This document shows, one piece after another, positions 7,275-52,262 of a DNA stretch of 64,000 nt. The stretch covers positions 1 to 64,000 of IMG/VR virus record IMGVR_UViG_3300034684_000299, one strand, 5' to 3'. Position 1 is the stretch's first letter. Each line of letters opens with the position of its first letter. The notes under the pieces are model-generated. The model searched no databases, was not told the DNA's origin, and worked only from the letters and a program-made list of their open reading frames with translations. Made by a program: the position numbers and the translations under genes. This stretch comes from a virus.

Positions 7275-8711
7275 CTACTTATATATTGGTGTTAAATCAA
7301 CATGAATTAAGGTTTGAGTCGTTTTTGTAGTAGTCATATTATTAACAGGTAATTGTATTGTTTCATTACCAAAACTTGTAGAAGAAATTAATGTAGGAAC
7401 TGTTTTGTTGGCAGTAGTTCCATCGCCTAATTGACCATTGCCATTCAAACCCCAAGTATATAATTTGCCTGATTCCGTTATTGCTGAGGAATGTCTATCT
7501 CCTAAACTTACAGCTATTACTTTTTCGCCATCGAAATTATCTATTAATATTGGTGTTGCCCTATTTGTAGTAGTTCCATCACCTAATCTACCATCACCAT
7601 TATAACCCCAAGTATATAATTTACCTGTCTCTGTTATTGCTGCTGAATGATAGTATCCTAAACTAACAGCAATTACTTTTTCTCCATTAAATCTATCTAT
7701 TAATGTAGGAACTGTTTTGTTGGCAGTAGTTCCATCGCCTAATTGACCATTGCCATTCAAACCCCACGTATATAATTTGCCTGATTCTGTTACCGCTGAA
7801 GAATGATACCATCCTAAACTAACAGCTATTATTTTTTCTCCATTAAATCTATTTATTAACGTAGGAATTGTTTTGTTGGCAGTAGTCCCATCACCTAGTT
7901 GCCCCGCATCGTTCAAACCCCAAGTATATAGTTTGCCTGATTCTGTTATCGCTGAAGAATGATATCTTCCTAAACTTACAGATATTACTTTTTCGTCATT
8001 AAACTTATCTATCAAAGTTGGTGTAGTTCTAGTAGTAGTAGTTCCATCACCTAATTGCCCAAAATTATTGTATCCCCATGTATATAATTTGCCTGATTCC
8101 GTTATTGCTGAGGAATGTCTATCTCCTAAACTTACAGCTATTACTTTTTCGCCATCGAAATTATCTATTAATATTGGTGTTGCCCTATTTGTAGTAGTTC
8201 CATCACCTAATCTACCATCACCATTATAACCCCAAGTATATAATTTACCTGTCTCTGTTATTGCTGCTGAATGATAGTATCCTAAACTAACAGCTATTAC
8301 TTTTTCGCCATTAAATCTATCTATTAATGTAGGAACTGTTTTGTTGGCAGTAGTTCCATCGCCTAATTCTCCATGAAAATTATATCCCCACGTATATAAT
8401 TTGCCTGATTCTGTTATTGCTGAAGAATGAGAGGAACCTGCTCCTATAGTATAATTCTCACCAAATCTTGACATTAGTACATACGAATCTATTTGATCAT
8501 TAAAAAATTTTATTTTTAAATTGTATGTTCCAGCCACTCTATTTTGTAATCTTACCCTTATTTTCCCTGTTACAGGGTCAAAATCAAAAGGTATAGGATT
8601 GTTTAAATCGTCGTATATTTTAAAATTACATCTTTTTCTTCCTAAACTATCGTATCCCATGACGGCAGGATTGAATGTTGCACCATCAGGAATGAATATC
8701 TCTGTACCCAT
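7275..8711 (-). CDS. RCC1-repeat beta-propeller protein C (7 repeats)
   Basis: Seven highly regular 52-aa repeats; SD AGGAGG. Confidence 0.88.
   Translation of the reverse strand: MGTEIFIPDGATFNPAVMGYDSLGRKRCNFKIYDDLNNPIPFDFDPVTGKIRVRLQNRVAGTYNLKIKFFNDQIDSYVLMSRFGENYTIGAGSSHSSAITESGKLYTWGYNFHGELGDGTTANKTVPTLIDRFNGEKVIAVSLGYYHSAAITETGKLYTWGYNGDGRLGDGTTTNRATPILIDNFDGEKVIAVSLGDRHSSAITESGKLYTWGYNNFGQLGDGTTTTRTTPTLIDKFNDEKVISVSLGRYHSSAITESGKLYTWGLNDAGQLGDGTTANKTIPTLINRFNGEKIIAVSLGWYHSSAVTESGKLYTWGLNGNGQLGDGTTANKTVPTLIDRFNGEKVIAVSLGYYHSAAITETGKLYTWGYNGDGRLGDGTTTNRATPILIDNFDGEKVIAVSLGDRHSSAITESGKLYTWGLNGNGQLGDGTTANKTVPTLISSTSFGNETIQLPVNNMTTTKTTQTLIHVDLTPIYK
7456..8368. repeat. Near-perfect intragenic direct repeat: 7456-7744 = 8080-8368 (289 bp, 2 mismatches, offset 624 = 4x156)
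   Basis: Direct base comparison; 7456-7670 and 8080-8294 are identical. Confidence 0.92.
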
Positions 8712-10648: not shown

Positions 10649-11941
10649 TTAAGATATTTTGTATCCATAACCGTCATTCCTTTGTAGTAATGTGAGATAT
10701 TTTGGATGTACATTACCGACACCATTTAATAAAAAGCTTGGGCTATGCCGTATTACAATTCTTCCAGTATGGATACCTTTATTTTTCCCTTTTGGTACTT
10801 TTGCTAATACTATATCGCCTGTTTTGTATCCCATATATGTTCGTTCTTTTGGGCGATAACTCTTTGGAAACCCATATTTATCCACAAAACACATTCTACG
10901 CATTCCATGTCCCATTGCTTTAATTTCTAAAACTTTCATATCTGGTTCGAGTTGAACGTTTTGGCCACTTTCTCCAACACAAGCTGCATCTATCCAATGT
11001 TCTTTTGGATACCCTTGTGTTTCACGATTGTATTTTGTCTGTCCTCCAGTTCCTACTTCGATAGGCAATCTTTCTTTCTTTAGTTGGTTAAACAGATACC
11101 AACGTGTTGCGTTGACTGCTGCTGTATCTTTGAGTGGCTTCTTTGATTCTGATTTAATTTGGTTCAGCCTTTCTGGATTATTGGCCAGAAATTCTTCGAT
11201 AGATTGATTACCTTTCTTCTGATTGCATTCGTGGCAAGCTAATGTTAGGTTACTTATTCTGTCACTTCCACCTTTAGATTTTGGTACGATATGTTCTATT
11301 TCTAATGGTATATTCTCTTTACCACAATATACACATTTCCTACCCCATTTCTCAAGGAGATACTCTTTTATTTCGTATCCATACAATGTTCCACGTTGAT
11401 ACTCTATTCCCTTAATTTCTGGATTTTGTAGTTTTTGAGTGTCAAAACGGACTAACTCCATTGAAATACCTGTAATTGGAGAAAAACGTCGAATACGTTT
11501 AATCCATGTGAGTATATTTTCTACACGACTTATAAGACTAGGTGGCAGCCAACCCTCTTTTCTCTTCCTATTCAAGAATCGTGGTTGCCTATATCTTGTC
11601 TTTCTGTTTCTGCGTGAACGTCTTACAGCTCTACGAGTATCTAAATTCTTCTTGATTACATATCCTCGGTGATGAATTACTGATGCCCAAATAACTTTCT
11701 TACCACGTTTAAAATCTGCTACTAAAGCGACTCCAGTATATTTACTGCCAGGATCGATCTTAACCTGTATTGGTTGAGTATCTCCACCTTCACGATCTTT
11801 CAGAATAATTGTGAATGGATGGTATCGAAATACTGCTGCTTTCCCTTTCTTCAATAACTCTCTTGCTCTTGCTGGATGGCAAGGCATTAATTGTTTCTTA
11901 TTCTTATCTAACACAAAAACTCGTTGTGCTGTTTTTCCCAT
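10649..11941 (-). CDS. iscB: IscB RNA-guided endonuclease #2 (RuvC + HNH motifs intact)
   Basis: QLMPCHPARAR, KIDPGS, RRAVRRSRRNRKTRYR, ELVRFD, CVYCG..EIEHIVPKSKGG..NLTLACHECN, HWIDAACVG. Confidence 0.95.
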   Translation of the reverse strand: MGKTAQRVFVLDKNKKQLMPCHPARARELLKKGKAAVFRYHPFTIILKDREGGDTQPIQVKIDPGSKYTGVALVADFKRGKKVIWASVIHHRGYVIKKNLDTRRAVRRSRRNRKTRYRQPRFLNRKRKEGWLPPSLISRVENILTWIKRIRRFSPITGISMELVRFDTQKLQNPEIKGIEYQRGTLYGYEIKEYLLEKWGRKCVYCGKENIPLEIEHIVPKSKGGSDRISNLTLACHECNQKKGNQSIEEFLANNPERLNQIKSESKKPLKDTAAVNATRWYLFNQLKKERLPIEVGTGGQTKYNRETQGYPKEHWIDAACVGESGQNVQLEPDMKVLEIKAMGHGMRRMCFVDKYGFPKSYRPKERTYMGYKTGDIVLAKVPKGKNKGIHTGRIVIRHSPSFLLNGVGNVHPKYLTLLQRNDGYGYKIS

Positions 11942-18929: not shown

Positions 18930-20210
18930 CTACGTAAGAATTGCTACCTCCTTTCTATAACTATACCCATCAAAGCGTTGTACAACTGAAAAATATTTAT
19001 GATTTACACCTTGTACAACTCTTTGACCTTCCTTGTTTTTAATATCAAAATATCCACTGTTTCTACAAGTAACTTCTCCATACCATATGCCTTTATATTT
19101 TCCTTTTGGTATTTCAGCTTTAACCATATCTCCTGTTTGAAAGCCAAAGAAATATTTTTGTCTTGCTAAATATCCTCTCTGAAAGCCGTATTTATCTAAA
19201 TTTGTTCTACAATGACTACCTCTACCTTTTGCTTTTATATACAAAACATCTTTTGTCTTAAAATATAATTTATCTGGTGTACTTTGACCTACACAACAAG
19301 CATCAAAGTAATGTTCTTTTGGCAATCCTAATTTGATTCTATTCATTTTAGTCAAAGCACCTGTACCACATTCTACTTCTAGTCCACTATTACAAAGTAT
19401 ATCATAAACTTTCCATCTTGTAGAATTAACTACAGAAGTATCCTTTAATGTTTGTTTAACTTGTTTTTGTATATCAGGATAACCAAATTCTTCTGCTGTC
19501 ATATTACCTTTCTTCTGGTTGCACTCATGGCAAGCTAAGCAGAGATTATCAATTCTGTTTGTTCCACCCCTTGATTTTGGTATTATATGTTCTACTTCTA
19601 ATGGAATGTTTTCTTTTCCACAATAACAACATTTTCTACCAAACTTTTCAAGTAAATATTCCTTAACTTCATATCCTTGTAAAGTACCTTGTTGATACTC
19701 TATACCACTATTTTCAGGATTTCTCATTAATTGAGTGTCGAATTTAACATTTTCATAAGATATGTGAGTTAATGGAATTAATTTTTGTAACCTATTAACC
19801 CATGTTTTTATATTATTAACTCTACTTTCAAGTGAAGGTGGTATCCAACCCTCTATTTTTCTTCTGTTCAAAAATCTTGGTTTTCTATATCTCGTCTTTC
19901 TATTTCTTCTGTTGTGTCTATACATACGCCTTGCATCAAGTTTCTTTTTAATATCTGTTCTATGGTCTATTTGTCCCAACCATATTACATTATTATTTTG
20001 TAATATGGCTAATCCCGTATGTTTACTACCATAATCAATTTTTAATCTATATTCTTGTTTATTATCAGTGTCATCTACTGCTTTTTTAAGGATTATTGTA
20101 AATGGGTATTTTCTAAATATTGCGGCCTTACCTTGTTTAAGCAATTTTCTTGCAACTGCTTCATGACAAGGTGATAATGGTTTTCTATTAATATCTAATA
20201 CAAATACCAT
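18930..20210 (-). CDS. iscB: IscB RNA-guided endonuclease #3 (RuvC + HNH motifs intact)
   Basis: KPLSPCHEAVAR, KIDYGS, RRMYRHNRRNRKTRYR, YENVKFD, CCYCG..EVEHIIPKSRGG..CLACHECN, HYFDACCVG. Confidence 0.95.
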   Translation of the reverse strand: MVFVLDINRKPLSPCHEAVARKLLKQGKAAIFRKYPFTIILKKAVDDTDNKQEYRLKIDYGSKHTGLAILQNNNVIWLGQIDHRTDIKKKLDARRMYRHNRRNRKTRYRKPRFLNRRKIEGWIPPSLESRVNNIKTWVNRLQKLIPLTHISYENVKFDTQLMRNPENSGIEYQQGTLQGYEVKEYLLEKFGRKCCYCGKENIPLEVEHIIPKSRGGTNRIDNLCLACHECNQKKGNMTAEEFGYPDIQKQVKQTLKDTSVVNSTRWKVYDILCNSGLEVECGTGALTKMNRIKLGLPKEHYFDACCVGQSTPDKLYFKTKDVLYIKAKGRGSHCRTNLDKYGFQRGYLARQKYFFGFQTGDMVKAEIPKGKYKGIWYGEVTCRNSGYFDIKNKEGQRVVQGVNHKYFSVVQRFDGYSYRKEVAILT

Positions 20211-35092: not shown

Positions 35093-36901
35093 ATGAACAA
35101 ACTAACAGTACAATTACCGTTATTAAAGGACCAATGGGCAGCAACATTACTACAAGCTTTATACAATCAGCATCCATATTTGATTGTAGATTCTGCAAAA
35201 GTTAATATCAATGATTACGCCTTAGACGATGGCGTTATAGGTATAATCTATGTTACTATGCAAAATCATAGATTTGGTATACCTTGTATCATACGTAATG
35301 GTGAGGCGTATCCATTCGATATACTTCTTTTGCCAAATGGTAATGTTGAATTGTTGAATAAAAACAACTACGAAAAACTTATCGCTGAGATATATCAAAT
35401 AGCAACTCCAGCACCTAAACTGGATACTATTGCTGATCTATTCACACCTAAGACTTCTGGACATTTACCAATAGACCAAGTGATGACTTTAGACGAATTG
35501 ACTAAACAATCTTCATATAGAACATTAGTATTCAGTGAATATGACCCAGAAGAGTTTATAAAAACAGCAAAAGAGGTATTCAACGTTTTACCAGATGCCA
35601 TTAAAAAGTTTGCAAAAGATTTGAATTTAAGATACTCTAAAAAGGATGAAGATTATACAGACGATATTACTGAGTTTGAAATTTTGGAAAAAACTGCTGG
35701 ATACCAGTTCATATTCTATAACTTGAACAAGAAAGTCAAAGAATACGTGAAAGGTAAAGGTGGATTAGAAAAGATAGCTGAAAACTTTGATATAAATGAT
35801 GAAGAGTTAGAACTTCTACAAAGAACTAAGTATGCTAAATTCAAAAAGAACGCTACTGATTTCTATATCGACCATGAAATAACTGAAAAACCCAAAATAA
35901 CGATTATAAAGATGGCAGGAGATAAAGAAGTCAGAGACAATGTTGATTTTCTCATAAAACCATCTGAACCTAAAGTTGGTACTAGAATGGTATTTTTTGA
36001 GAAAGGTGCCAACGACGAATTATATTTCACTGAACCTATTTATATCACTAAAGTCGAAAAAGATAAATTAGAAGGATATTCTTCAGAAGGATTTGTGAAG
36101 TTAAAAGAAACAGACAAAAACTTTATAAAAAATGCTGCTGTTCCTGAAAGCAAAACATATCTTTTATCAACTAATGCTTTACCTTTTGAGGCAGTTGACA
36201 AAAAACAATACGATGTTAGCAACAAATATCAGCAATTGTTAAAGACCGCATCCTACAATAAATTAAAAATACATAAAGCACCTTCTGCTTATATAGTAGA
36301 TGATAGTAAAATCCTTAAAAATTTAAACGATGTTGATGTTTATCTTATGAAAGAAGCAGGATTTGATGCCAGAGACACTTTGTATATAAATCAACATTTA
36401 GAATCACTTCCACCTTCTAATAGCATTGTTATAAATTACAAACACAATGACCATGAAAAAATTGCAGAGCATAATGACAACACAATTGAAATGTCTAAGG
36501 AAGATAAAAAAGCTTTAATAAAATTTGCAACTTACTATTTGCAAGCGACTGAACAAGGATTATTAAAAATTGCTCAAACTCCAAAAGAAACAAAATCTCA
36601 AGAACAAGTAATGACTAGCCGTGAATTACTCGATTATGCATTAAGACAAGATCCAGACGAAGCGATAGCATACAATTTATTAGAATTAACAGCCAGCAAA
36701 AAATTGAATATATCAGAGCTTATAATGCAATATCAATTATTAGAGAATTCCAAAAATGTATTGATCAAATTACTACTTCAAGCAGAAGTTGGACTCTTAC
36801 CAATAAAGTTTGATATTGTACGCAATGCTTTAATAGCTTTAGAAAATTTATTATTAAGCATTGAATATCTTGTTAATCAGAATCAAACCACGGAAAAATA
36901 A
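35093..36901 (+). CDS. Putative internal virion protein rich in K-x-A motifs (602 aa)
   Basis: 15 K-x-A tripeptides counted; located in spike-RNAP operon. Confidence 0.6.
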   Translation: MNKLTVQLPLLKDQWAATLLQALYNQHPYLIVDSAKVNINDYALDDGVIGIIYVTMQNHRFGIPCIIRNGEAYPFDILLLPNGNVELLNKNNYEKLIAEIYQIATPAPKLDTIADLFTPKTSGHLPIDQVMTLDELTKQSSYRTLVFSEYDPEEFIKTAKEVFNVLPDAIKKFAKDLNLRYSKKDEDYTDDITEFEILEKTAGYQFIFYNLNKKVKEYVKGKGGLEKIAENFDINDEELELLQRTKYAKFKKNATDFYIDHEITEKPKITIIKMAGDKEVRDNVDFLIKPSEPKVGTRMVFFEKGANDELYFTEPIYITKVEKDKLEGYSSEGFVKLKETDKNFIKNAAVPESKTYLLSTNALPFEAVDKKQYDVSNKYQQLLKTASYNKLKIHKAPSAYIVDDSKILKNLNDVDVYLMKEAGFDARDTLYINQHLESLPPSNSIVINYKHNDHEKIAEHNDNTIEMSKEDKKALIKFATYYLQATEQGLLKIAQTPKETKSQEQVMTSRELLDYALRQDPDEAIAYNLLELTASKKLNISELIMQYQLLENSKNVLIKLLLQAEVGLLPIKFDIVRNALIALENLLLSIEYLVNQNQTTEK

Positions 36902-36907
36902 GGGGCG

Positions 36908-37687
36908 ATGCTAATGTTACCATACAACAGATTTTTGATAGCTTTAAAAAGTCTGGGATATAACTACAGGGAAATTCAATCAATATTGAATTCATATAAA
37001 TTACCCAACATGACAGAAGAGCATTATATAGGTATAAATGCCAACGATATTGATGATTGGGTATTAAAATTAATTGATGGATGGAAAGATAAAGATAAAT
37101 ATAAGACGGTATTCTATAAGATGTTAAACAATGCGATGATGAGATATAAACTTATGGCATTGTTAACCGCTAATCCTAATACAGAAGAATTAGCTAAAAC
37201 GATGAAACAAAATGGATTAGAAGAAATAGATGAAGAATCATTGGAATTATTCAAAAAATGGTTTTGGGACATTGATGAGACTAAAGAAAAAGATTGGGAT
37301 TATTTTTTTGAACACAACAGGTTCCCTGGGCAAGTATTGGAAAAGATACAAAATGCATTATACGGAGACAAGATGTTGACATATTATGAAAATGGAATAT
37401 TCCCGGAACCTGACCCAAATGCTTTTTTAAATGGAATTGTTGCGGTAGCATACCAAAAATTAAGAGATATGTTAGCAGACCCTGTCAAACGTAACAGGGT
37501 TAATTATAATACGGCTGTAAAACATGCTATGAAAGCTTTAGAAGTTTTAACCGCTAGAGAAAAGACAGGGACGTCAGAGGTTGATCCTGCTGATATAATA
37601 AATATCTTAGAAAAAAAATTGAAATTTAAAAATATGAAAGATTTTAAAAATATTAATGATTTGCAAGAGAAGGATGAGAAAAAATGA
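36908..37687 (+). CDS. Hypothetical helical protein directly upstream of RNAP (259 aa)
   Basis: ORF overlapping RNAP start (ATGA); function unknown. Confidence 0.7.
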   Translation: MLMLPYNRFLIALKSLGYNYREIQSILNSYKLPNMTEEHYIGINANDIDDWVLKLIDGWKDKDKYKTVFYKMLNNAMMRYKLMALLTANPNTEELAKTMKQNGLEEIDEESLELFKKWFWDIDETKEKDWDYFFEHNRFPGQVLEKIQNALYGDKMLTYYENGIFPEPDPNAFLNGIVAVAYQKLRDMLADPVKRNRVNYNTAVKHAMKALEVLTAREKTGTSEVDPADIINILEKKLKFKNMKDFKNINDLQEKDEKK

Positions 37688-40600
37688 TTCTAACCGGATA
37701 TGCTGAAAAAACGAATGAAGAGTTTAAAAGTGCCATAGAAAGAAAAATAAAAGAAATGTTTCCCATACAAGCTGGAGACAGAGAAATTGTACTTGAAAAA
37801 TTAACAGTCACTGAACCAAAAGAAGCCTATGATGCCGCTGCTTTTGAACAGAAAAAGCTTAATCTTTCATCTATTTCTTTTGATGTCAGTATGAATTTAA
37901 AATTGAGGAACACAAAAACCAACGAAACTATAGATTCTAAAGTTATAAAATTAAAGATTCCTGCTGCTACTATTAAGAACGATTTTTTGGTCAAAGGTAA
38001 CGAGTATGTAATACCAACACAATTGCGATTGAAACCGGGAATATACACTAGGCGAAAATCAAATGGCGAATTAGTTGCTGAATTTAAAATGGAAAAGGGT
38101 GAAAACTTTAAAATAGTTCTCGACCCTAATAAAAACGCGTTGAGAATTGATCAACAGGGCAGACAAATTAAATTGATACCTTTCTTAAAAGGAATGGGCA
38201 TAACAGAAGAACAAATGCGTAAAGCATGGGGAAATGAGGAGTTCAATGTTCTGAATCAAGTTGATGGTCAAGGTGATCCCCAAAAAGAAGTTCAAAAAGT
38301 AATGGAAAAGGACTTTTCTAATAGATACAGATGGTTATGGGAAGATATAGACCCTAATCTTCCACCAAATGAAAAAGTCAAAAAATACATGGAGAAAACA
38401 GAGTTAGATAGTAAAATAACGAATATCACACTTGGGCAAGAAATAAGTAAAGCAGATGTCAACGCTATTTTAGCTGCCGCCGCTAAATTAATTCAAATTT
38501 CTAAAGGTGAAGCAAAAGAATCAGGTATGAGTTCTATAGTTTACAAAAAAGCTCATAAACCATACCATCATATCGAAGAAAAATTAGACGATATGAAAAA
38601 TGTTTTGAACAGTACTGTGAAAAAAAGAATGTTGCAATTCGATGATTTACATAAAATAATCTCCCCTAGTTATACACAAAAGATATTTGATAATTTTTTT
38701 CTTACCTCTTCGGCTTCACAGTTAGCAGACCAGCCTAATGTGATTGGACTTTTATCTAACATGGGAAAAGTTACTCTAACAGGAGAGGGAGCTATTGAAG
38801 AAGATAGAGCTGTAACTGAAGCGGATAGAAGTGTAGACCCTTACCATTTTCTTTTTTTAGACCCTGTACATACACCTGAATCTGAAAAAATTGGTTCTAA
38901 CCTCTTTGCTACAATAGGTTCTCTTGGCTCGATTACAAACGATACGAGTCAGGAATTAAAAAGTGTTTTTTATAATTTAAAAACAGGGCAAAATGTAACA
39001 TTAGCTCCTATCGATGTGTATGATAAAGTTGTTGCTTTTCCAAATGAAATCGAAGGTAAAAAACCAACAGGCAAAACGGTAAAAGCACTTCATAAAGGTG
39101 AAATAAAAAATGTCAAAGATACAGAAGTTGATTTAATCCCTTTAAACGCATCTGAAATGTTTGATTTTTCTTCAAATTTAATACCATTCTTATCTTCAAT
39201 AAATGGAAATAGAGCTATGATGGCTTCAAAACATCTAACTCATGCTATTCCTTTAGTAGACCCAGAACCACCTTTAGTTCAAAATATTGTACCAAATACA
39301 TCTAGAACCTTTGAGAATACAGTAGGTTCTGCTGTAAGTATGTTTTCTCCTGTGGATGGTACGGTTGTTTCTGTTTCCGATAAAAATATAAAAATTAAAG
39401 ATAATAAAGGAAAAATTTACAATGTATCTTTATTGGATTATATTGAAACAGGTGAAAGTACCTTTTTGAAACATATTCCTGTTGTCAAAAAGGATGATAA
39501 AGTTAAAAAAGGACAATTAATAGCAGATTCCAACATGTCCAAAGGTGGTACCTTAGCAATCGGTAAAAATTTAAAGGTTGCTTATGCTCCATACAAAGGA
39601 TTTAACTATGAAGATGGCATAGTAATTTCTGATACAGCTGCTAAAAAATTAGCTTCTGAACATTTATATAATTTTAAAATAGAAATTCTTCCTGGCATGG
39701 TATTTGATAAAAACAAATTCCGTTCTTATTTTCCTAATGAATATACAACACAGCAGTTAAACAATCTAGATGATACAGGTATAGTAAAAAAAGGAACAAA
39801 ATTGAAATATGGAGACCCAGTAGCAGTTTTATTGAAAGAGCGTTCTCAATCAATCCACGAAAAATTAATAGGTGATTTGCATAAACAATTGATGTCTCCG
39901 ATGATAAATGCTTCTGTTGAATGGGACAAAAACGCAGAAGGAGAAGTAGTAAGAGTTGTTAAATCTTCTTCATTAATACAGGTTATGGTAAGAACAGTCG
40001 AACCCATTGTTGCTGGAGATAAAATAGTTGGAAGACACGGTAATAAAGGTACCGTGGCACAAATAGTACCTGAAAAAGATATGCCTGTTGATGAAAGTGG
40101 AGAACCTATAGAAGTAATATTGAACCCTGCTGGTATACCATCGAGAATCAATCCTTCACAAGTTTTAGAAACGGTAGCAGGTAAAATAGCTAAAAAAACG
40201 GGTACACAATATAATATAGAAAATTTCAAACCAAATACGAATTATTTGGAACAATTAAAAACTGATTTGAAAAAATATAATTTAAAAGATACAGAGTATT
40301 TAACTGATCCAAATCTTGGTAAATTAGAAAAACCTGTATTGACAGGATATCAATATATGGTAAAACTTCCCCAACAAGTTGAAGTTAAAACTAATATAAG
40401 AGAAGAATGGGGATACGATGCAGATAAAAGGCCTCTAAGAGGTAGTCAAGAAGGTGGAGGATCAAGGGCATTGGACCCTCTTACCGCTTATTCTTTAATA
40501 GCTCACGACGCAAGAGCTAATATGAGAGAAATGGCTACGTATAAAGCGGAGCAAAATGATGAATTCTGGTTGGCAATAGAAAACGGACAAATTCCACCTG

Positions 40601-43600
40601 CTCCTAAACCCACATTTGCTTTCAATAAGTTTGTTGGTTATTTGAAAGGGGCTGGAATTGATGTAACAAAATCTGGCAATAATTTACAATTAGCCCCTAT
40701 GAAAGATAAAGACATCTTGTCTATGTCCAATGGAGAAGTCAAAAAACCAGATACGTTGAAAGCATACAATTTAACACCTGAAAAAGGTGGAATTTTTGAT
40801 GTTGACGTATTAGGCGGATTACAAGGAGATAAATGGGGACACATAAATTTGGTAAGTAGTATACCAAACCCAACTTTTGAAAGGCAAATCAAAAAAATAC
40901 TTGACTTGTCTTCTAGAGAATATGAACAATTGCTTAAAGGGGAAAAAGGCGTAGATAATAATGGAAATATTGTTGATAAAAATCAGGCCACTTATTTTGC
41001 CGGTGATGCTTTTAAAAAATTATTGTCTAAAATTAATCCAGATCAGGAATTAAGAAAAATACAAGAAACATTAAAGCAAAACGATAATTTACGACCAGAA
41101 GAAATAGATTCTTTAATGTACAAAGCTAAAATCTTTAGAGGTATGAAAGAAACTGGGACCAAACCTGAAGATTATGTAATTAGTCATATACCAGTTATAC
41201 CACCTAAATATAGACCGGTGTACCCTTCACAAGACGATAAGTTTCTTGTAGTTTCACCAATTAATCATTTGTATAAAGATACATTATTACTGAATAATCA
41301 AATAAAAGATGCTGAACAAAGTAAAACATTAACTAAAGAAGAAGAATTAAAATTAGTAGGTGATTTATATAATCAAGTAAAAGCTTTAGTCGGAATTGGT
41401 TCACCTCTCCCTGGCACTCAATCTTCAAAAGAAGGTGCCTCTGGAGCTTTAGAATTTTTAGCTGGAACTCAAAGCCCTAAAAGTGGATATTTTCAATCCA
41501 GACTATTCAGTAAAAGGCAAGAATTGTCTTCGACAGCCGTTATACAGAATGGACCTGATTTAAATTTAGATGAAGCAGCTATTCCCGAAGAGGCTCTTTG
41601 GAATTTGTATAGACCTTTTTTGATAAAGAAACTTCAAGAGAATGGATACAACATCAAAGAAGCTAAAGAAATGATAAAAAATAAAGACCCAATGGCAAGA
41701 AAAATGTTAGAAGAAGAGATTGAAAGTAGACCTGTTTTGTTAAACAGAAGTCCTTCATTACATAAATTTTCCGTTATGGCATTTAAACCTAAAATTACAC
41801 AAGATCAAGTAATAAGATTAAATCCTAATGTTGTAGCAGGCTTTAATGCTGACTACGATGGCGACAGTATTTTTTCCTCTGTTTATGCGGCTTTTTTCAA
41901 CGACGACCAAGATACTCAAAATTATAAATTATTAGGAGAAAACGATATGCCATTTGAAGAATTATCCTTAAGAACAACGTTTGGACTAATTAATTTAAAG
42001 GATTTTCCTAGAATTGAAAAAAGCAAAAGGGTAGAAGGCAACAAAGAAATTTATAAAGTTCCTAAAAATGTAAGGATTTTGGCTTCAAAAGATGGAAAAA
42101 CTGGATATTATCCAATTGAAAGTTTCAGTATACATAAAAATCTAGAAATGGTAGAAGTTAAAACCAACACGTCAAGAACCATTCATTGTTCTAAAGACCA
42201 TTCCCTAGTAACGGTGGATGAAAATCTCAACTATATCAATCATGTTCCAGAAAAATATCTAACTATTCCTAGATTGAGGAAACCTGTTGATACTTACACT
42301 GCCGAACATATTGTTCTTGAAGATAAAGGAGAAAGTAATTATAATTTTAATTTTAAAATTCCTTTAGACGAAAAATGGGGTTATGTTAATGGCGTGTATA
42401 TAGGTGATGGTTGGGTAGATCATATCCAAAGTAAATATAGCATGAATTTAGCCAATGTATCTGAAGAATTATTTAAAGAAATCCAAAATATTTTTAATAG
42501 TTATATTAATGATGAAAACAAGATACATTTTTACATCAAAAATAATCCACATGATTTCGATGGATTTAAAAGTTTTTCAAGAAAAATAACATGGCATTCA
42601 AAAACTTTTCACAATTATTTTAGTTCTTTAGGACATAGAGCTCAAAACAAACATTTGCCAGAATATTGGCTTATTGCTCCTGAAAATTTTAAATGGGGTT
42701 TGTTGGCTGGTTTAATAGATACTGACGGGACAATAAGTTATAATCAGACAGAAAACGGCATTCAGAGAATGTGTATAAATTATTACACAACTTCCAGAAC
42801 TTTAGCTTATGAAATAGCTGCATTAGCTGCAAGTTTAAATTTAACAGCTTCAGTATCTCCAACATTCACACCCAAAGGAGAAGAAGCTTGGACAATTATA
42901 TTTAGTCAAGAATCAATTGTAGATATACAAAATAAATTAAATTTACGTGTTGTTGATAAAAAAGAAAAATTGCAAAAGTATATTCCTAACAAAAATTTTG
43001 CACGTAATAAATATACTCCTAAATTAAGCAAATCTAGACTAAATGAATTGAGAAAAGCAATAGGATCTCCTAGATTAAGGAATAGAAAAGGTGAGTTAAT
43101 AACGGAAGATCCTATTGAACAGTCTAAAATAAAACACAAAAAAAGTTTGAATGTAATCTGTACAAGAGTATCCAATAACAATACTGCTTTAACCAAACAA
43201 ACAGCTTTAAAAATTTTTGATTTGAATTTAGATATATTTGAAAAAGATCCTTTCTGGAAAAAATGGAAAGAGATGGTATTAGATGAAAATATTGAATGGG
43301 AATTAATTACAGATATAAAACCTATACCAGAGATAACTGAAGCTTATGATTTAACAGCAGGACCTTTGTATACTATGATTACAGAAAATGGGTTTATTGT
43401 TCAAGATACAATGGCCATCCATGTTCCAGTAACTGAAGAGGCCAGACAAGAAGCTTTACGTATGACACCTTCAAAAAACCTATTCAGACCTGGAAGTAAA
43501 ACTCTTATGAATACATTGAGATTAGAATACAATGGAGGTATTTATAATTTAACAGCCCCTCCTGAAAATGATAACGTACTTCCTATTCAAGTAGGAGATT

Positions 43601-45519
43601 ACAAAACATTATTTGAACAATTAAGAAATAATAAGGTTAAATACAACGATTTAGTAAAATTCAATGGCAAAGTTTCGACTGTAGGCAGGCATTTAGTAAA
43701 TGAATTGTTCCCTGAGAAATACAGAGATTACAATAACCAATGGAATGGAAAGAAAATAAATAGTACATTGGAAGCTATTGCAAAAGAAAATCCTGATAAA
43801 GCTGTAGAAATATTGAATAGATTAAAAGAATTATCTAGATATGCTATGTACAAAATACCAATAACCGTATCTTTGAATGATCTAGAAATTCCAGAAGCAA
43901 AAGCAATAAAAAATGAAATAAAAAAAATTGACTCATCTTCTAACAAATCGAAAGAAGAAATTATCAAAGAATTAAATCAAGTAGATAATCAAGTTTCAAA
44001 AATGATAGATGAACTATCTAAAAAAAAGGCTAATGAAAACGCATTTTTAATGATGAAAGATTCAGGAACAAAAGGCTCAACTTCGCAAATAAAACAATTA
44101 TTAATAGGACCTGTCAGTGTACAAAATAGTTTTGGTGAAACAATACCAATAGCATTAGGTAATAGTTATTCTGAAGGATTAACACCTGCCCAATATTTTG
44201 CAGCCTCATACGGAGCTAGAATGGGTATGTTAGCTAAAAAATTGGGTGTATCTGAACCTGGAGCTTTAAATAAGGAAATATTAAATTCTGTATCAGACCA
44301 AATAGTTTCTCAATACGATGATCCAAACAATCCAGGTATACCCATTAAAATATCAGAAGAAGATGAAAAAGATTTAGTAGGAAGAGTTTTAGCTAAAGAC
44401 GTATTGGATGAAAGAGGCAGAGTATTAATAGCTAAAGGTGAAATTTTAACACCTCATGCCTTATCATTAATAAAGAATCATAAAATAGATTATATAAATA
44501 TAAAATCTCCTCTTACTGATACTACACCAATAGGTTTAAGTGGCACAAGTTTCGGTTTAGATGAAAATAGTAGAATTCCAAGTATAGGAACTAATCTAGG
44601 TGTTAAACAGACACAAGCTATAACAGAACCATTATCTCAAGGAGCTTTAAACTTTTTTCATACAGGTGGAGTTACTTCTACAGATTCAACAATGTCCACA
44701 TATGAAGCTATAAATACAATGACCAAATTAACAGAGACATTTCAAAGCAAATCAGCAGTATTATCGCTAGTAACTGATACAGTTGAAAAGATAAACAAAA
44801 AACCGTTAGGTGGTTATGAAGTAACAATAGGTGGAGTAAAACATGATATCCCTACAGGATTAGAACCAAAAGTCAAAGTGGGAGATAAAGTTAAAAAAGG
44901 TGAACCCATTTCTACTGGAATGGTTCATCCTGAAGAAGCTTACAAAGCAAGAGGATTGCCTTATGCTGAACAAATTATGGCTAAACAGTTCAGAGATGTT
45001 TTAAAACAGGATCTCAATATAGATTCCGCAAGTATAGAAACATTGGTTAAAGGATTGATTTCAACTGCACAGATATTAGACCCAGGAAATCATGCTGATG
45101 AATTCAAAATTGGTGATGTTGCCAACAGTCAATATATAGATTATTTGAATAGAAAAGATACCCTCACAACCAAAAAAGTAAATTCAGATTTAATAGGTTG
45201 GGTTGTTGGGGATAATTATGGTTATATAAATATAGGAACACCAATTGACGAAAATATATTAAAAGAGTTACAAGAGATGGGATTAAAAGAAATACAAGTT
45301 TACAAGCAAAATATAAAGTTTCAACCGATAATCAAAGGAACAACGGTTTTACCACATAAAAAGTTTGATTGGTTACATAGAGCTACATTCAGAAACCTCA
45401 AACAAGTATTTCCAGAAGAAGCTGCTTTTGGTGGTAAAGCTAATATTCATGGACCAAGTCCATTGACAGCATGGACATATGGAGCTGAAATAAGGAAAGA
45501 TGAAAAAGGGCAATATTAA
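37684..45519 (+). CDS. rpoBC: Fused beta-beta' multisubunit-type RNA polymerase with intein (2611 aa; about 2097 aa spliced)
   Basis: beta motifs DPVHTPES, NLIPFL..NRAMM, GFNYEDG, GDKIVGRHGNKG, LNPAGIPSRIN; beta' motifs GEVKKPDT, PVIPPKYRP, LLNRSPSLH, NADYDGD, bridge helix ASYGARMG, trigger loop QAITEP..FHTGG. Confidence 0.95.
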   Translation: MILTGYAEKTNEEFKSAIERKIKEMFPIQAGDREIVLEKLTVTEPKEAYDAAAFEQKKLNLSSISFDVSMNLKLRNTKTNETIDSKVIKLKIPAATIKNDFLVKGNEYVIPTQLRLKPGIYTRRKSNGELVAEFKMEKGENFKIVLDPNKNALRIDQQGRQIKLIPFLKGMGITEEQMRKAWGNEEFNVLNQVDGQGDPQKEVQKVMEKDFSNRYRWLWEDIDPNLPPNEKVKKYMEKTELDSKITNITLGQEISKADVNAILAAAAKLIQISKGEAKESGMSSIVYKKAHKPYHHIEEKLDDMKNVLNSTVKKRMLQFDDLHKIISPSYTQKIFDNFFLTSSASQLADQPNVIGLLSNMGKVTLTGEGAIEEDRAVTEADRSVDPYHFLFLDPVHTPESEKIGSNLFATIGSLGSITNDTSQELKSVFYNLKTGQNVTLAPIDVYDKVVAFPNEIEGKKPTGKTVKALHKGEIKNVKDTEVDLIPLNASEMFDFSSNLIPFLSSINGNRAMMASKHLTHAIPLVDPEPPLVQNIVPNTSRTFENTVGSAVSMFSPVDGTVVSVSDKNIKIKDNKGKIYNVSLLDYIETGESTFLKHIPVVKKDDKVKKGQLIADSNMSKGGTLAIGKNLKVAYAPYKGFNYEDGIVISDTAAKKLASEHLYNFKIEILPGMVFDKNKFRSYFPNEYTTQQLNNLDDTGIVKKGTKLKYGDPVAVLLKERSQSIHEKLIGDLHKQLMSPMINASVEWDKNAEGEVVRVVKSSSLIQVMVRTVEPIVAGDKIVGRHGNKGTVAQIVPEKDMPVDESGEPIEVILNPAGIPSRINPSQVLETVAGKIAKKTGTQYNIENFKPNTNYLEQLKTDLKKYNLKDTEYLTDPNLGKLEKPVLTGYQYMVKLPQQVEVKTNIREEWGYDADKRPLRGSQEGGGSRALDPLTAYSLIAHDARANMREMATYKAEQNDEFWLAIENGQIPPAPKPTFAFNKFVGYLKGAGIDVTKSGNNLQLAPMKDKDILSMSNGEVKKPDTLKAYNLTPEKGGIFDVDVLGGLQGDKWGHINLVSSIPNPTFERQIKKILDLSSREYEQLLKGEKGVDNNGNIVDKNQATYFAGDAFKKLLSKINPDQELRKIQETLKQNDNLRPEEIDSLMYKAKIFRGMKETGTKPEDYVISHIPVIPPKYRPVYPSQDDKFLVVSPINHLYKDTLLLNNQIKDAEQSKTLTKEEELKLVGDLYNQVKALVGIGSPLPGTQSSKEGASGALEFLAGTQSPKSGYFQSRLFSKRQELSSTAVIQNGPDLNLDEAAIPEEALWNLYRPFLIKKLQENGYNIKEAKEMIKNKDPMARKMLEEEIESRPVLLNRSPSLHKFSVMAFKPKITQDQVIRLNPNVVAGFNADYDGDSIFSSVYAAFFNDDQDTQNYKLLGENDMPFEELSLRTTFGLINLKDFPRIEKSKRVEGNKEIYKVPKNVRILASKDGKTGYYPIESFSIHKNLEMVEVKTNTSRTIHCSKDHSLVTVDENLNYINHVPEKYLTIPRLRKPVDTYTAEHIVLEDKGESNYNFNFKIPLDEKWGYVNGVYIGDGWVDHIQSKYSMNLANVSEELFKEIQNIFNSYINDENKIHFYIKNNPHDFDGFKSFSRKITWHSKTFHNYFSSLGHRAQNKHLPEYWLIAPENFKWGLLAGLIDTDGTISYNQTENGIQRMCINYYTTSRTLAYEIAALAASLNLTASVSPTFTPKGEEAWTIIFSQESIVDIQNKLNLRVVDKKEKLQKYIPNKNFARNKYTPKLSKSRLNELRKAIGSPRLRNRKGELITEDPIEQSKIKHKKSLNVICTRVSNNNTALTKQTALKIFDLNLDIFEKDPFWKKWKEMVLDENIEWELITDIKPIPEITEAYDLTAGPLYTMITENGFIVQDTMAIHVPVTEEARQEALRMTPSKNLFRPGSKTLMNTLRLEYNGGIYNLTAPPENDNVLPIQVGDYKTLFEQLRNNKVKYNDLVKFNGKVSTVGRHLVNELFPEKYRDYNNQWNGKKINSTLEAIAKENPDKAVEILNRLKELSRYAMYKIPITVSLNDLEIPEAKAIKNEIKKIDSSSNKSKEEIIKELNQVDNQVSKMIDELSKKKANENAFLMMKDSGTKGSTSQIKQLLIGPVSVQNSFGETIPIALGNSYSEGLTPAQYFAASYGARMGMLAKKLGVSEPGALNKEILNSVSDQIVSQYDDPNNPGIPIKISEEDEKDLVGRVLAKDVLDERGRVLIAKGEILTPHALSLIKNHKIDYINIKSPLTDTTPIGLSGTSFGLDENSRIPSIGTNLGVKQTQAITEPLSQGALNFFHTGGVTSTDSTMSTYEAINTMTKLTETFQSKSAVLSLVTDTVEKINKKPLGGYEVTIGGVKHDIPTGLEPKVKVGDKVKKGEPISTGMVHPEEAYKARGLPYAEQIMAKQFRDVLKQDLNIDSASIETLVKGLISTAQILDPGNHADEFKIGDVANSQYIDYLNRKDTLTTKKVNSDLIGWVVGDNYGYINIGTPIDENILKELQEMGLKEIQVYKQNIKFQPIIKGTTVLPHKKFDWLHRATFRNLKQVFPEEAAFGGKANIHGPSPLTAWTYGAEIRKDEKGQY
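41866..43407 (+). mobile_element. Intein with LAGLIDADG homing endonuclease (514 aa, Ser1...Gln-Asp / +1 Thr)
   Basis: Removal joins NADYDGD to TMAIHVP (cf. NADFDGDQMAVHVP); block B CSKDH, GVYIGDG, LAGLIDTDG, block F AYDLTA..NGFIVQD. Confidence 0.9.
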
Positions 45520-46195
45520 AGTTTCAAGAAAGGAGGAAAAGTGTTTCGACACTTATAATAATATGATAAAAAAAGAATTTGTAAAAACAGCAAAATCACA
45601 TGGTGCTTTAATGGGAGGAGCCGCTGATATAATGGCTGGTATGCCTCTTCAAATTGGTTCAATAAAATCCCAACAAAAGACTCAGCAAAAACTTACAGAT
45701 TTAAATACAATTTACCAAATAACAACGGGTAGTGATTTGGTAGAGGATTTAAGTAAGTATCAGAAACCACGAGGTGGAGGAATATTGCGTTCCATTGGTT
45801 TAATAGGTGGAACATTAGCAGGTGCTGCTCTTGGAGGTAAAGTTGGAGGTACAATAGCTACAAAATTTATGAAAGATGTTCCAGCTAAAAAAATAACTAG
45901 TAAGTTAATAGGTGCTGAAACTACTAAACAGTTTGGTGAAATAGCAGGTAGTTCTATAGGATCTAATGTAGCTAGTTTTACAGATACAGCCATCGATAAA
46001 AGAAGTATCAATAGAGCAAAACGAAATTTAGAAAGAGATACAAATATAGACCCTGTAAAAAAGGATTTACTAAATAAAGCGTTGGACTTGCAAAGAGAAT
46101 CAGCAAAAAAATACGATGTCGTAGATACTATAGATTTATTCTCCTCACCTATTATTCAAAATACTACTTTCAAACTAAGAAGTCGTTTTAAATAA
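45500..46195 (+). CDS. Glycine-zipper membrane-like protein (probable start ATG 45563)
   Basis: IGLIGGTLAGAALGGKVGG and GEIAGSSIGS; FVKTAK motif near N-terminus. Confidence 0.65.
   Translation: MKKGNIKVSRKEEKCFDTYNNMIKKEFVKTAKSHGALMGGAADIMAGMPLQIGSIKSQQKTQQKLTDLNTIYQITTGSDLVEDLSKYQKPRGGGILRSIGLIGGTLAGAALGGKVGGTIATKFMKDVPAKKITSKLIGAETTKQFGEIAGSSIGSNVASFTDTAIDKRSINRAKRNLERDTNIDPVKKDLLNKALDLQRESAKKYDVVDTIDLFSSPIIQNTTFKLRSRFK
45529..45562 (+). promoter_or_regulatory. SD-hairpin-AUG initiation site (gene 45563)
   Basis: AAAGGAGG, stem AAGTGT-TTCG-ACACTT 45539-45554, ATG 45563. Confidence 0.6.
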
Positions 46196-46231: not shown

Positions 46232-46260
46232 TTGCAATTTCCTTCTTTTTATGATATAAT
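46232..46260 (+). promoter_or_regulatory. sigma70/sigmaA-type promoter upstream of dnaG
   Basis: TTGCAA-N17-TATAAT with TGn. Confidence 0.7.
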
Positions 46261-50053: not shown

Positions 50054-50091
50054 TTGGTATATATTAAATATATTAAAAATATGCTAGGCTT

Positions 50092-51233: not shown

Positions 51234-51470
51234 ATGTTAATTTTTTGGTATATATATATTAAATTATATGAACAAAAGGAGGTGTTTACCATTAACAATG
51301 ATTTTGAGAAATGTTTAGCGATGTTAAGGAAGGATAAAAGGATAGAGGAACTTCTAAAAATTCATAACGAAAAAGAAAAAGAACTTTCGGCACTTCAAAA
51401 AGCTTTTAACATGGATACTTCGTTTCAAGGTAATTTTTATTTGGACGACGACACAAAAGATTTTGAGTAA
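51234..51470 (+). CDS. Small hypothetical protein; best SD points to ATT 51291
   Basis: AAGGAGGT 7 nt before in-frame ATT. Confidence 0.55.
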   Translation: MLIFWYIYIKLYEQKEVFTINNDFEKCLAMLRKDKRIEELLKIHNEKEKELSALQKAFNMDTSFQGNFYLDDDTKDFE

Positions 51471-51554: not shown

Positions 51555-52262
51555 GTGATAAAGTTGGTATCTCTGAAGATTATCAAAAAGTTTATTGAGT
51601 TGTATGATCCAGGGAACAGTCCAAGACATTTTTACAACTTTGTTATAACACTGATTGAGTTGTCTGAAAGAAAAGCGTTAATCAGTGGAGCAAAGTTGAA
51701 TATGGGTGAAATTTCTCGTAAGTATCATACGCCAAGAGCGAGAATATTGGATACTTGGCGTACATTTAATGAACTGGGATATTTGGTAGCTCAAAACGCC
51801 AAAGGTTCTTCCAGATATTTTGTAAAGTTAGGTCCCGTGTTTCAAGAATATTTTGCAGCTATTATGTTGGAGAACAATGAATTTCCTGGTGATGATTTTA
51901 TCAAAATACTTTTCAAACAGTTTTTTCAAACTACAAGGGACTCTTTCGCTAAGGAATTAACGAATGCAATAAATAATTCAATGGCTCCTTCTTTCAAAGA
52001 ACTGTATCCAGAACTATGGAAATTCCTGCCAGACGATGAAAAAGAAATATTAGAAGTTTATGAAACATATGCTGGACAATTAGACATATCTGAATTTGGC
52101 GTTTTTGAAAAAATTTGTAAAATGTATCCAAGACTAGATATCTTAGAAGGAATTAAAAAGACATATTCAGACGATACAGAGGAAAACTTCTTAAGAAAAT
52201 ACGGTGTTAGAGCTTTAGATAATTATTTATCATTAAAAGTCAAAAAGGAGGAATTAAAATGA
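51555..52262 (+). CDS. Winged-helix DNA-binding protein, possibly DnaD-like C-terminus
   Basis: ISRKYHTPRARILDTWRTFNELGYLV HTH-like segment. Confidence 0.45.
   Translation: MIKLVSLKIIKKFIELYDPGNSPRHFYNFVITLIELSERKALISGAKLNMGEISRKYHTPRARILDTWRTFNELGYLVAQNAKGSSRYFVKLGPVFQEYFAAIMLENNEFPGDDFIKILFKQFFQTTRDSFAKELTNAINNSMAPSFKELYPELWKFLPDDEKEILEVYETYAGQLDISEFGVFEKICKMYPRLDILEGIKKTYSDDTEENFLRKYGVRALDNYLSLKVKKEELK

Follow-up and report, generated by a model that had tools for sequence, protein, structure and literature searches.

The window analysed here, the first 64,000 nucleotides of the IMG/VR virus record IMGVR_UViG_3300034684_000299 (185,437 bp, about 91% complete), carries on its plus strand a gene for a phage-specific RNA polymerase core of the bacterial type, whose beta and beta' subunits are joined head to tail, without a linker, in one chain. 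The gene is a single open reading frame (ORF) of 2611 residues that matches six Pfam beta and beta' domains, all in order, with Rpb2_3 and Rpb2_6 at residues 346-908, Rpb1_1 and Rpb1_2 at residues 999-1395, and Rpb1_4 and Rpb1_5 at residues 2080-2375. An initial annotation, made from the sequence alone, had described one ORF with beta motifs, a natural junction and a beta' core including bridge helix and trigger loop, and the alignments bear this out in each part (Table 1). It had missed an intein of 514 residues that is inserted in the Mg-binding loop NADYDGD, immediately after its final Asp. The annotated statement that the enzyme is much shorter than cellular beta plus beta' does not apply to the ORF and is valid only for the spliced product of 2097 residues, the two cellular subunits together amounting to at least 2289 residues among 23 bacterial samples and to 2749 residues in Escherichia coli.

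At the junction (GIDVTKSGNN...GEVKKPDT), the region aligning with the C-terminus of E. coli beta runs directly into that aligning with beta' residues ~30-45. The last conserved beta block abuts the beta' segment ahead of GEVKKP and, relative to E. coli, about 18 N-terminal residues of beta' are missing. The arrangement can be aligned across the polymerases of the window, Vibrio phage D69, Salmonella phage Arash and the IMG/VR loci L008, L009, L010 and L011, and fusions of the same type occur in more than 100 metagenomic proteins. The junction is genuine and not an assembly artefact, since it is conserved in 71 of 84 related IMG/VR loci as well as in the metagenomic proteins, and is crossed by contigs from other studies. 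The latter differ there by substitutions only.

Overall identity to the E. coli enzyme is 24.8% in the alignment. The NADYDGD loop, the beta GDKxxGRHGNKG motif, the lid and rudder region, the bridge helix and the trigger loop are retained, together with the beta lysine motif GDKIVGRHGNKG, the equivalent of trigger-loop residue H936, and the two sigma-docking surfaces, namely the clamp helices and the flap-tip region. SI3 is absent. The zinc ribbon of beta' is missing from all 44 aligned family members, and the cysteines of the second zinc site (C814, C888, C895 and C898) are kept in 32 of the 44 and lost in the window polymerase and its nearest relatives. In rifampicin cluster I, E. coli residues Q513 and D516 are kept, while H526, R529 and S531 are replaced by N, K and T, respectively, and these substitutions suggest a reduced sensitivity of the phage enzyme to rifampicin. 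Natural rpoB-rpoC fusions are structurally easy, the C-terminus of beta lying adjacent to the N-terminus of its partner, and those of Helicobacter and Wolbachia are ordinary cellular enzymes of full size in which alpha2 and omega are still employed. The window enzyme is likewise one polypeptide, but it is smaller, highly divergent and devoid of both zinc sites.

The fused form is widespread. Among the 84 related IMG/VR loci, 55 are fully fused, 16 carry beta fused to the N-terminal part of beta' and 9-10 have separate genes. Public protein collections yielded at least 716 matching clusters, ranging from 1436 to 4570 residues, and about 75 of the best 120 proteins are single chains of 2000-2100 residues, encoded on contigs of up to 199 kb. 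A tree was constructed with IQ-TREE (LG+G4; 58 rows, 1966 columns; unrooted, with no archaeal, eukaryotic or published mReC sequences). In it, the 28 rows of junction-fused phage enzymes are united in one clade, a separate clade holds 23 bacteria representing at least 13 phyla, and a set of viral loci with separate beta' and then beta genes makes up a third, long-branched clade, each with a Shimodaira-Hasegawa-like approximate likelihood ratio (SH-aLRT) support of 100. Split forms of the Arash type constitute a monophyletic subgroup of the fused clade (SH-aLRT 98). The fused enzymes thus stand outside the 23 sampled bacteria, and the nesting within a normal bacterial clade that would have spoken against the initial annotation is not seen.

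It is extremely improbable that the gene is a cellular rpoBC locus that has been mis-binned or mis-assembled. A partial protein of 99% identity is filed at NCBI under a Thermoanaerobacterium metagenome-assembled genome (MAG), which could be taken to favour a cellular origin, but the MAG contig extends over only 7.5 kb, whereas the 185-kb contig carries phage genes throughout, including portal and TerL genes homologous to those of Arash, in agreement with the annotation of the polymerase as phage-encoded. Moreover, in a pattern-seeded scan of one genome each for 185,579 prokaryote species the best cellular match within the most conserved 140 residues reached no more than 38-44% identity, and the tree sets the polymerase apart from all sampled bacteria.

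Two loci detected in the survey are exceptional. In L143 (IMGVR_UViG_3300000172_000001), beta and beta' lie in the same frame with one in-frame stop between them at about position 8152, possible explanations being that the genes split recently, that the stop is read through or that it is recoded. The "viral" contig L165 (IMGVR_UViG_3300029491_000146) carries ordinary separate rpoB and rpoC genes that fall beside Blautia within the Bacillota in the tree, and this entry of the viral collection probably represents cellular DNA.

The closest cultured relatives, at about 30-32% identity, are the polymerases of Arash (Gp206 and Gp216; OQ632216, PMC10585845) and of the Vibrio phages D69, D148 and D181. 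Arash shares with the window phage the in-frame junction fusion, the tree clade, a homologous protein of the sigma-70 family (Gp10), the portal and TerL, and the window phage groups on all these counts with the Arash-like phages. In contrast to the single, intein-bearing chain of the window, beta' is split in Arash and D69 about 90-130 residues past the catalytic loop; in these relatives beta and the N-terminal part of beta' form one gene product of 1525-1527 residues and the remainder of beta' is encoded by a second gene. The Arash paper labels Gp206 as "beta" and makes no mention of a fusion (PMC10585845).

Kinship with the mReC lineage (Weinheimer and Aylward 2020, PMC7481178), which had been suggested initially, is loose. 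Both concern tailed phages with beta and beta' homologues; those of mReC branch outside the cellular clades, and the window polymerase branches outside the sampled Bacteria. However, in the examined part of Supplementary Data 2 of PMC7481178 the mReC beta (about 1000 or 1365 residues) and beta' (about 900-1000 residues) are listed as separate proteins, the paper mentions fusion only for crAssphage, and mReC phages carry Gp23-type capsids (PMC7481178), for which no match to PF07068 was obtained in the window phage genome at E ≤ 1. The window phage therefore falls outside mReC as defined; judging from gene sizes, the long-branched viral clade with separate genes presumably corresponds to mReC. 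Contig numbers of the related IMG/VR loci found no match in the mReC supplementary tables, possibly owing to differences in naming.

Other phage polymerases are more distant. The phiKZ and AR9 enzymes (PMC7598289, PMC7824862) are also beta and beta' relatives lacking alpha and omega, and one set is carried in the virion, but they are far more divergent, occur as two sets per genome, use no sigma factor and, as the initial annotation correctly stated, are split rather than fused, consisting of four or five pieces (PMC7824862). The window enzyme is fused, single copy and accompanied by a sigma-70-family protein. The giant polymerase of crAss-like phages similarly combines both double-psi barrels in one chain but cannot be recognised by sequence as a homologue of COG0085 or COG0086 (PMC7481178), unlike the window enzyme with its six Pfam matches. 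No publication describing a family of fused beta-beta' phage polymerases, or inteins in such enzymes, was found in the literature searched, and this single-chain, probably sigma-dependent, intein-interrupted form of phage-encoded bacterial-type polymerase is apparently undescribed in searchable papers, despite being widespread.

The boundaries of the intein are precisely defined. The protein reads NADYDGD/SIFSS...FIVQD/TMAIHVPVT, with slashes marking the borders of the insertion, while the uninterrupted Vibrio phage D69 protein reads DYDGDAMSVFAPVT. With exactly 2097 residues (2611 minus 514), the metagenomic protein P0005 matches at 97% identity and reads NADYDGD/TMAIHVP, and its contig L176, with the same gene order, carries the empty site ...GACGGCGAT/ACAATGGCC..., at which the window has 1542 extra bases as a clean difference. 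An intein-free joint of positions 41862 and 43405 was also found in one oil-field DNA run and in two oil-field RNA-library runs. The contigs from the latter, X12 and X13, represent an intein-free relative and, being assembled from libraries that may contain DNA, are not counted as proof of transcription. No contig from the oil-field runs covers the intein interior; the bridging joint is the evidence used there, and the gap itself is given no weight. Immediately to the left of the insertion (41860-41865), two codons differ synonymously between the occupied site, GAT GGC GAC, and the empty site of L176, GAC GGC GAT, which may affect recognition by the endonuclease.

Within residues 1395-1908, Pfam detects LAGLIDADG_3 above its cutoff (49 bits) and Intein_splicing below it (26.4 versus 35.8 bits). 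Searching the PDB by sequence gave only weak matches to the VMA intein (E 3e-4) and a fold search was needed: an AlphaFold model of the intein, with a predicted local distance difference test (pLDDT) score of 65, retrieved PI-PfuI and the TliVMA intein with Foldseek at E about 1e-14 (E 2e-14 to 6e-5 when PI-SceI is included). With these LAGLIDADG inteins it shares the HINT splicing fold and two-motif endonuclease, Ser1, the block B His, the block F Asp and Thr+1, an insertion site in a conserved catalytic motif of an essential gene, and the existence of an empty allele; it differs in its Gln-Asp end, in an extra loop of ~20 residues after the first strand, and in having the Mg-binding loop of beta' as its site. 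In terms of a class 1 intein, the N-terminal Ser, block B, the block F Asp, Thr+1, both folds and a precise presence/absence polymorphism are all found, and the penultimate His and C-terminal Asn are not.

As translated, the 2611-residue product would be inactive, the catalytic Mg-binding loop being separated by the intein from the residue that follows it. Splicing by attack of Ser1, transfer to Thr+1 and cyclisation of the C-terminal Asp would then generate the 2097-residue enzyme. Six homologous inteins at the NADYDGD site, 32-71% identical, share the block B motif S-x-D-H and the block F motif AYD-T, with Ser or Cys at position 1, the block B His, the block F Asp, the terminal Asp and Thr+1 invariant. 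In two of these (L008 8142-9326 and L178 14165-15547), the LAGLIDADG endonuclease is partly lost while all the splice-junction residues are kept, which is the decay stage expected of a homing cycle. It is very unlikely that the insertion fails to splice, whether it persists in the protein as an additional domain or has knocked out this gene copy. The Gln-Asp end in place of the canonical His-Asn, the sub-threshold Intein_splicing match and the related inteins that start with Gln or Met would be in line with such a failure, but this is the genome's sole polymerase gene, with the insertion in the Mg-binding loop that it encodes, the frame is open and the extein strongly conserved with respect to the empty allele, the junction residues persist in homologues even where the endonuclease has decayed, and inteins that end in Asp or Gln, or lack the penultimate His, are documented to splice (PMC4031507). 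With its catalytic-loop site, Asp end and 97%-identical natural empty allele, the intein would be a clean subject for work on homing and on the chemistry of non-canonical splicing.

The polymerase family is a hotspot for inteins: insertions occur at about eight sites, and a single protein can carry as many as four. A second group, located at the same NADFDGD site (P0021, P0042, P0043, P0049, P0066 and P0082), starts with Gln or Met and ends with Ser-Asn before Thr+1; lacking an N-terminal nucleophile, these inteins cannot undergo the standard first splicing step. In Vibrio phage D181 (L004, 5914-13896) the polymerase gene, which is intact in D69, is annotated as several ORFs, the break being due to the insertion of a homing-endonuclease gene. 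This insertion is probably an intron, and the polymerase gene would thus draw mobile elements of several kinds.

The absence of alpha, omega and sigma genes from the window, as given in the initial annotation, agrees with the Pfam results, and none of the corresponding families reaches threshold in the whole genome. For alpha and omega, PF01000, PF01193 and PF01192 gave no match at E ≤ 1-5 across the 185 kb, whereas controls matched in 14 of 14 genomes. The initial proposal of a possibly self-sufficient enzyme with unknown promoter recognition is unsupported: a gene of the sigma-70 family, encoding 232 residues, lies outside the window at genome positions 173083-173781 on the minus strand, and its product is modelled onto the beta' clamp helices. 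The protein is homologous to the Arash virion protein Gp10 (phmmer 6e-13) and is conserved in relatives, where some copies have been named sigma factors by JGI. Its family profile matches regions 2-4 of RpoS, RpoD and SigA in the PDB at E about 1e-7 (RpoS 115-326 at E 9e-8), and its model (pLDDT 76) retrieves sigma factors with Foldseek at 3e-7 with a probability of 1.0; Pfam alone detects only region 3, below threshold. No homologue of the second Arash sigma factor, gp196, was found in the genome with phmmer.

A complex model of the sigma-like protein with beta' residues 1003-1394 scored 0.80, and the best of three controls scored 0.00. Of 80 solved complexes 58 attain that mark, as do 2 of 110 mismatched pairs. 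The runs share at least 70% of contacts, the partner has a pLDDT of at least 78, and in the modelled interface sigma residues 43-61, in sigma region 2, face the clamp helices (1187-1227). An alternative, which we judge unlikely, is that the sigma-like protein redirects the host polymerase, the phage core using another specificity factor or none. Phage sigma factors acting on a host core are common, and those of jumbo phages lacking a polymerase are thought to redirect the host enzyme (PMC7824862); the phiKZ and AR9 polymerases have a non-sigma fifth subunit, and the complex model cannot distinguish a phage core from a host core. Nevertheless, the sigma homologue co-occurs with the fused polymerase all the way from the window phage to Arash, with polymerases ~32% identical, and both docking surfaces are retained in the phage core, on whose clamp helices sigma region 2 is modelled far above the controls.

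Two classes of putative promoter were distinguished. The motif TTGGTATATA occurs in 18 copies in the genome, against about 1 expected, and 16 of these are on the plus strand. Its usual form is AAAAAA-N8-10-TTTTTTGGTATATATA, and nearly all copies lie just upstream of genes or small RNA genes, mostly at 35-80 nt and behind a T-run, in places that are conserved in relatives. It looks like an extended -10 element and may define a phage-specific promoter class, a candidate for recognition by the sigma-bearing holoenzyme. The second class, TTGACA/TTGCAA-N17-TGATATAAT, closely resembles the sigma-A consensus and has an extended -10 element. Their occurrence suggests two transcription programmes operating side by side.

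We consider it probable that the fused core, after splicing, would initiate most likely with the phage's own sigma-70-family protein, possibly at promoters carrying the TTTTTTGGTATATATA motif. By analogy with Arash, core and sigma would probably be made late, packed into the virion and injected, this being the weakest step, and the injected enzyme would free phage transcription from the host polymerase, probably in a rifampicin-insensitive manner. By mass spectrometry of Arash virions, Gp206 gave the most spectra of any particle protein (3516), with 1210 for Gp216 and 467 for Gp10 (PMC10585845), and virion packaging in the window phage is suggested solely by these data.

Several points weigh against this reading. 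The genome is not quite complete, and an alpha-like fold without a sequence signal, or the use of host alpha, may be compatible with the data. The intein carries a penultimate Gln and a terminal Asp rather than His and Asn, and its model is of low confidence at both termini. The sigma and clamp-helix pair resembles many solved holoenzymes, such that the score of the complex may reflect memory and indicates likeness rather than binding, and the sigma-like protein could serve the host polymerase. Concerning packaging, Arash, the source of the virion data, shares only about 32% identity, particles may according to the Arash authors be contaminated by abundant enzymes (PMC10585845), and the polymerase gene of the window phage lies not beside the portal gene but just upstream of genes for an SNF2 helicase and a DnaG primase.

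The last two points would also fit a possible, though less probable, course of infection in which the enzyme stays outside the virion: the host polymerase would read early genes at the sigma-A-type promoters and the phage enzyme, made after infection, would act later on middle or late genes, in the way of the non-virion phiKZ and AR9 polymerases. Promoters of the near-consensus form TTGACA-N17-TGATATAAT, one of which precedes the primase gene, are in accord with this. On the other hand, sigma-70-type promoter matches are not enriched in the region 32-51.8 kb (88 found versus 102 expected), the polymerase gene lies directly 3' of the portal gene in four relatives (Arash, D69, L010 and L011), and Gp206 heads the spectral counts in Arash virions. 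Moreover, the sigma homologue is located within a block of large co-oriented minus-strand ORFs, arranged like Arash gp8-gp10, one of which has a weak baseplate-domain match (E 0.021, below Pfam's cutoff).

In the account usually taught of bacterial polymerase assembly, beta and then beta' join alpha2, and omega serves as a chaperone. A natural beta-beta' chain that is widespread may dispense with alpha, omega and both zinc sites, yet keep a sigma factor. A further proposal, which we regard as tentative and rather doubtful in its entirety, is that the spliced 2097-residue chain and one 232-residue sigma-like protein would constitute a complete two-protein machine, free of alpha, omega and zinc, delivered by the virion, acting at TTTTTTGGTATATATA-type promoters and independent of the host. 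If true, no smaller natural holoenzyme would exist in the cellular polymerase lineage, and this one would be common to hundreds of uncultured phages. A joined beta-beta' enzyme of the kind found here would provide a minimal model for the folding of the two-barrel core, initiation and regulation, and a compact, possibly rifampicin-insensitive, orthogonal transcription system. The cultured relatives, Arash and the Vibrio phages, render the fused-polymerase reading testable now.

Table 1. Features of the polymerase gene and its surroundings, with putative promoters; positions refer to the window unless marked as genome
Feature	Position	Strand	Basis or remarks
Single-chain beta-beta' RNA polymerase gene, 2611-residue precursor (2097 residues once spliced)	37684..45519	+	One open frame and Pfam
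Beta module, residues 1-999: Rpb2_3, Rpb2_6, flap with tip-helix region, GDKxxGRHGNKG	37684..40680	+	Pfam, alignment
Rifampicin cluster I equivalent, residues 338-370	38695..38793	+	Alignment to E. coli
Beta-to-beta' junction, residues 991-1024, linker-free	40654..40755	+	Alignment
N-terminal part of beta', residues 1000-1394, last residues NADYDGD, zinc ribbon deleted	40681..41865	+	Pfam, alignment
Beta' clamp helices, residues 1187-1227, predicted dock for the phage sigma-like protein	41242..41364	+	Alignment, complex model
Intein, residues 1395-1908, 514 residues	41866..43407	+	Ser1, block B S-K-D-H, block F AYDLT, C-terminal Gln-Asp, then Thr+1
First LAGLIDADG motif of the homing endonuclease domain	42382..42411	+	YVNGVYIGDG
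Second LAGLIDADG motif	42703..42729	+	LAGLIDTDG
C-terminal part of beta', residues 1909-2611, first residues TMAIHVPVT	43408..45519	+	Pfam, alignment
Bridge helix	44173-44310	+	Alignment
Trigger loop	44581-44685	+	Alignment
ORF of 259 residues, stop overlapping the polymerase start (ATGA)	36908..37687	+	tblastn: conserved in close relatives only
Downstream ORF, 231 residues (210 in the gene call of a relative)	45500..46195	+	tblastn: conserved in close relatives only
Putative promoter motif TTGGTATATA	50054..50063	+	T-run before it; same place in relatives
Putative promoter motif TTGGTATATA, second window copy	51245..51254	+	310 nt upstream of the gene at 51555
Putative promoter motif TTGGTATATA, further copies, with others besides	Genome 91553, 102027, 105633, 115167, 116221, 116810, 120816, 124500, 133586, 144416, 147115
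Putative near-consensus sigma-A-type promoter	46232-46260		Before primase gene
Putative near-consensus sigma-A-type promoter	Genome 156617	-
Putative near-consensus sigma-A-type promoter	Genome 101905	+
Putative near-consensus sigma-A-type promoter	Genome 95749	+

The ORFs flanking the polymerase gene, of 259 residues upstream and 231 residues downstream, were considered as alpha- or omega-like subunits and rejected, having no Pfam or PHROG match. An ESM Atlas model obtained in the search for accessory subunits among the flanking ORFs was poor (pLDDT 0.49) and had no meaningful neighbours. The 602-residue ORF at 35093-36901 was similarly rejected as a portal gene, the homologue of the Arash portal being located at genome positions 63492-65318.

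Elsewhere, the genome contains a single Rpb2_6 locus, a TerL that matches PF03237, and genes for tail-like RCC1 proteins and HNH endonucleases. The match to the Thermoanaerobacterium MAG and the samples in which related sequence occurs, subsurface and oil-field metagenomes, provide weak hints as to the host. Two paralogous minus-strand ORFs of 430 and 426 residues, at 10649-11941 and 18930-20210 of the window, lie among tail genes and match the HNH endonuclease family phrog_2214.

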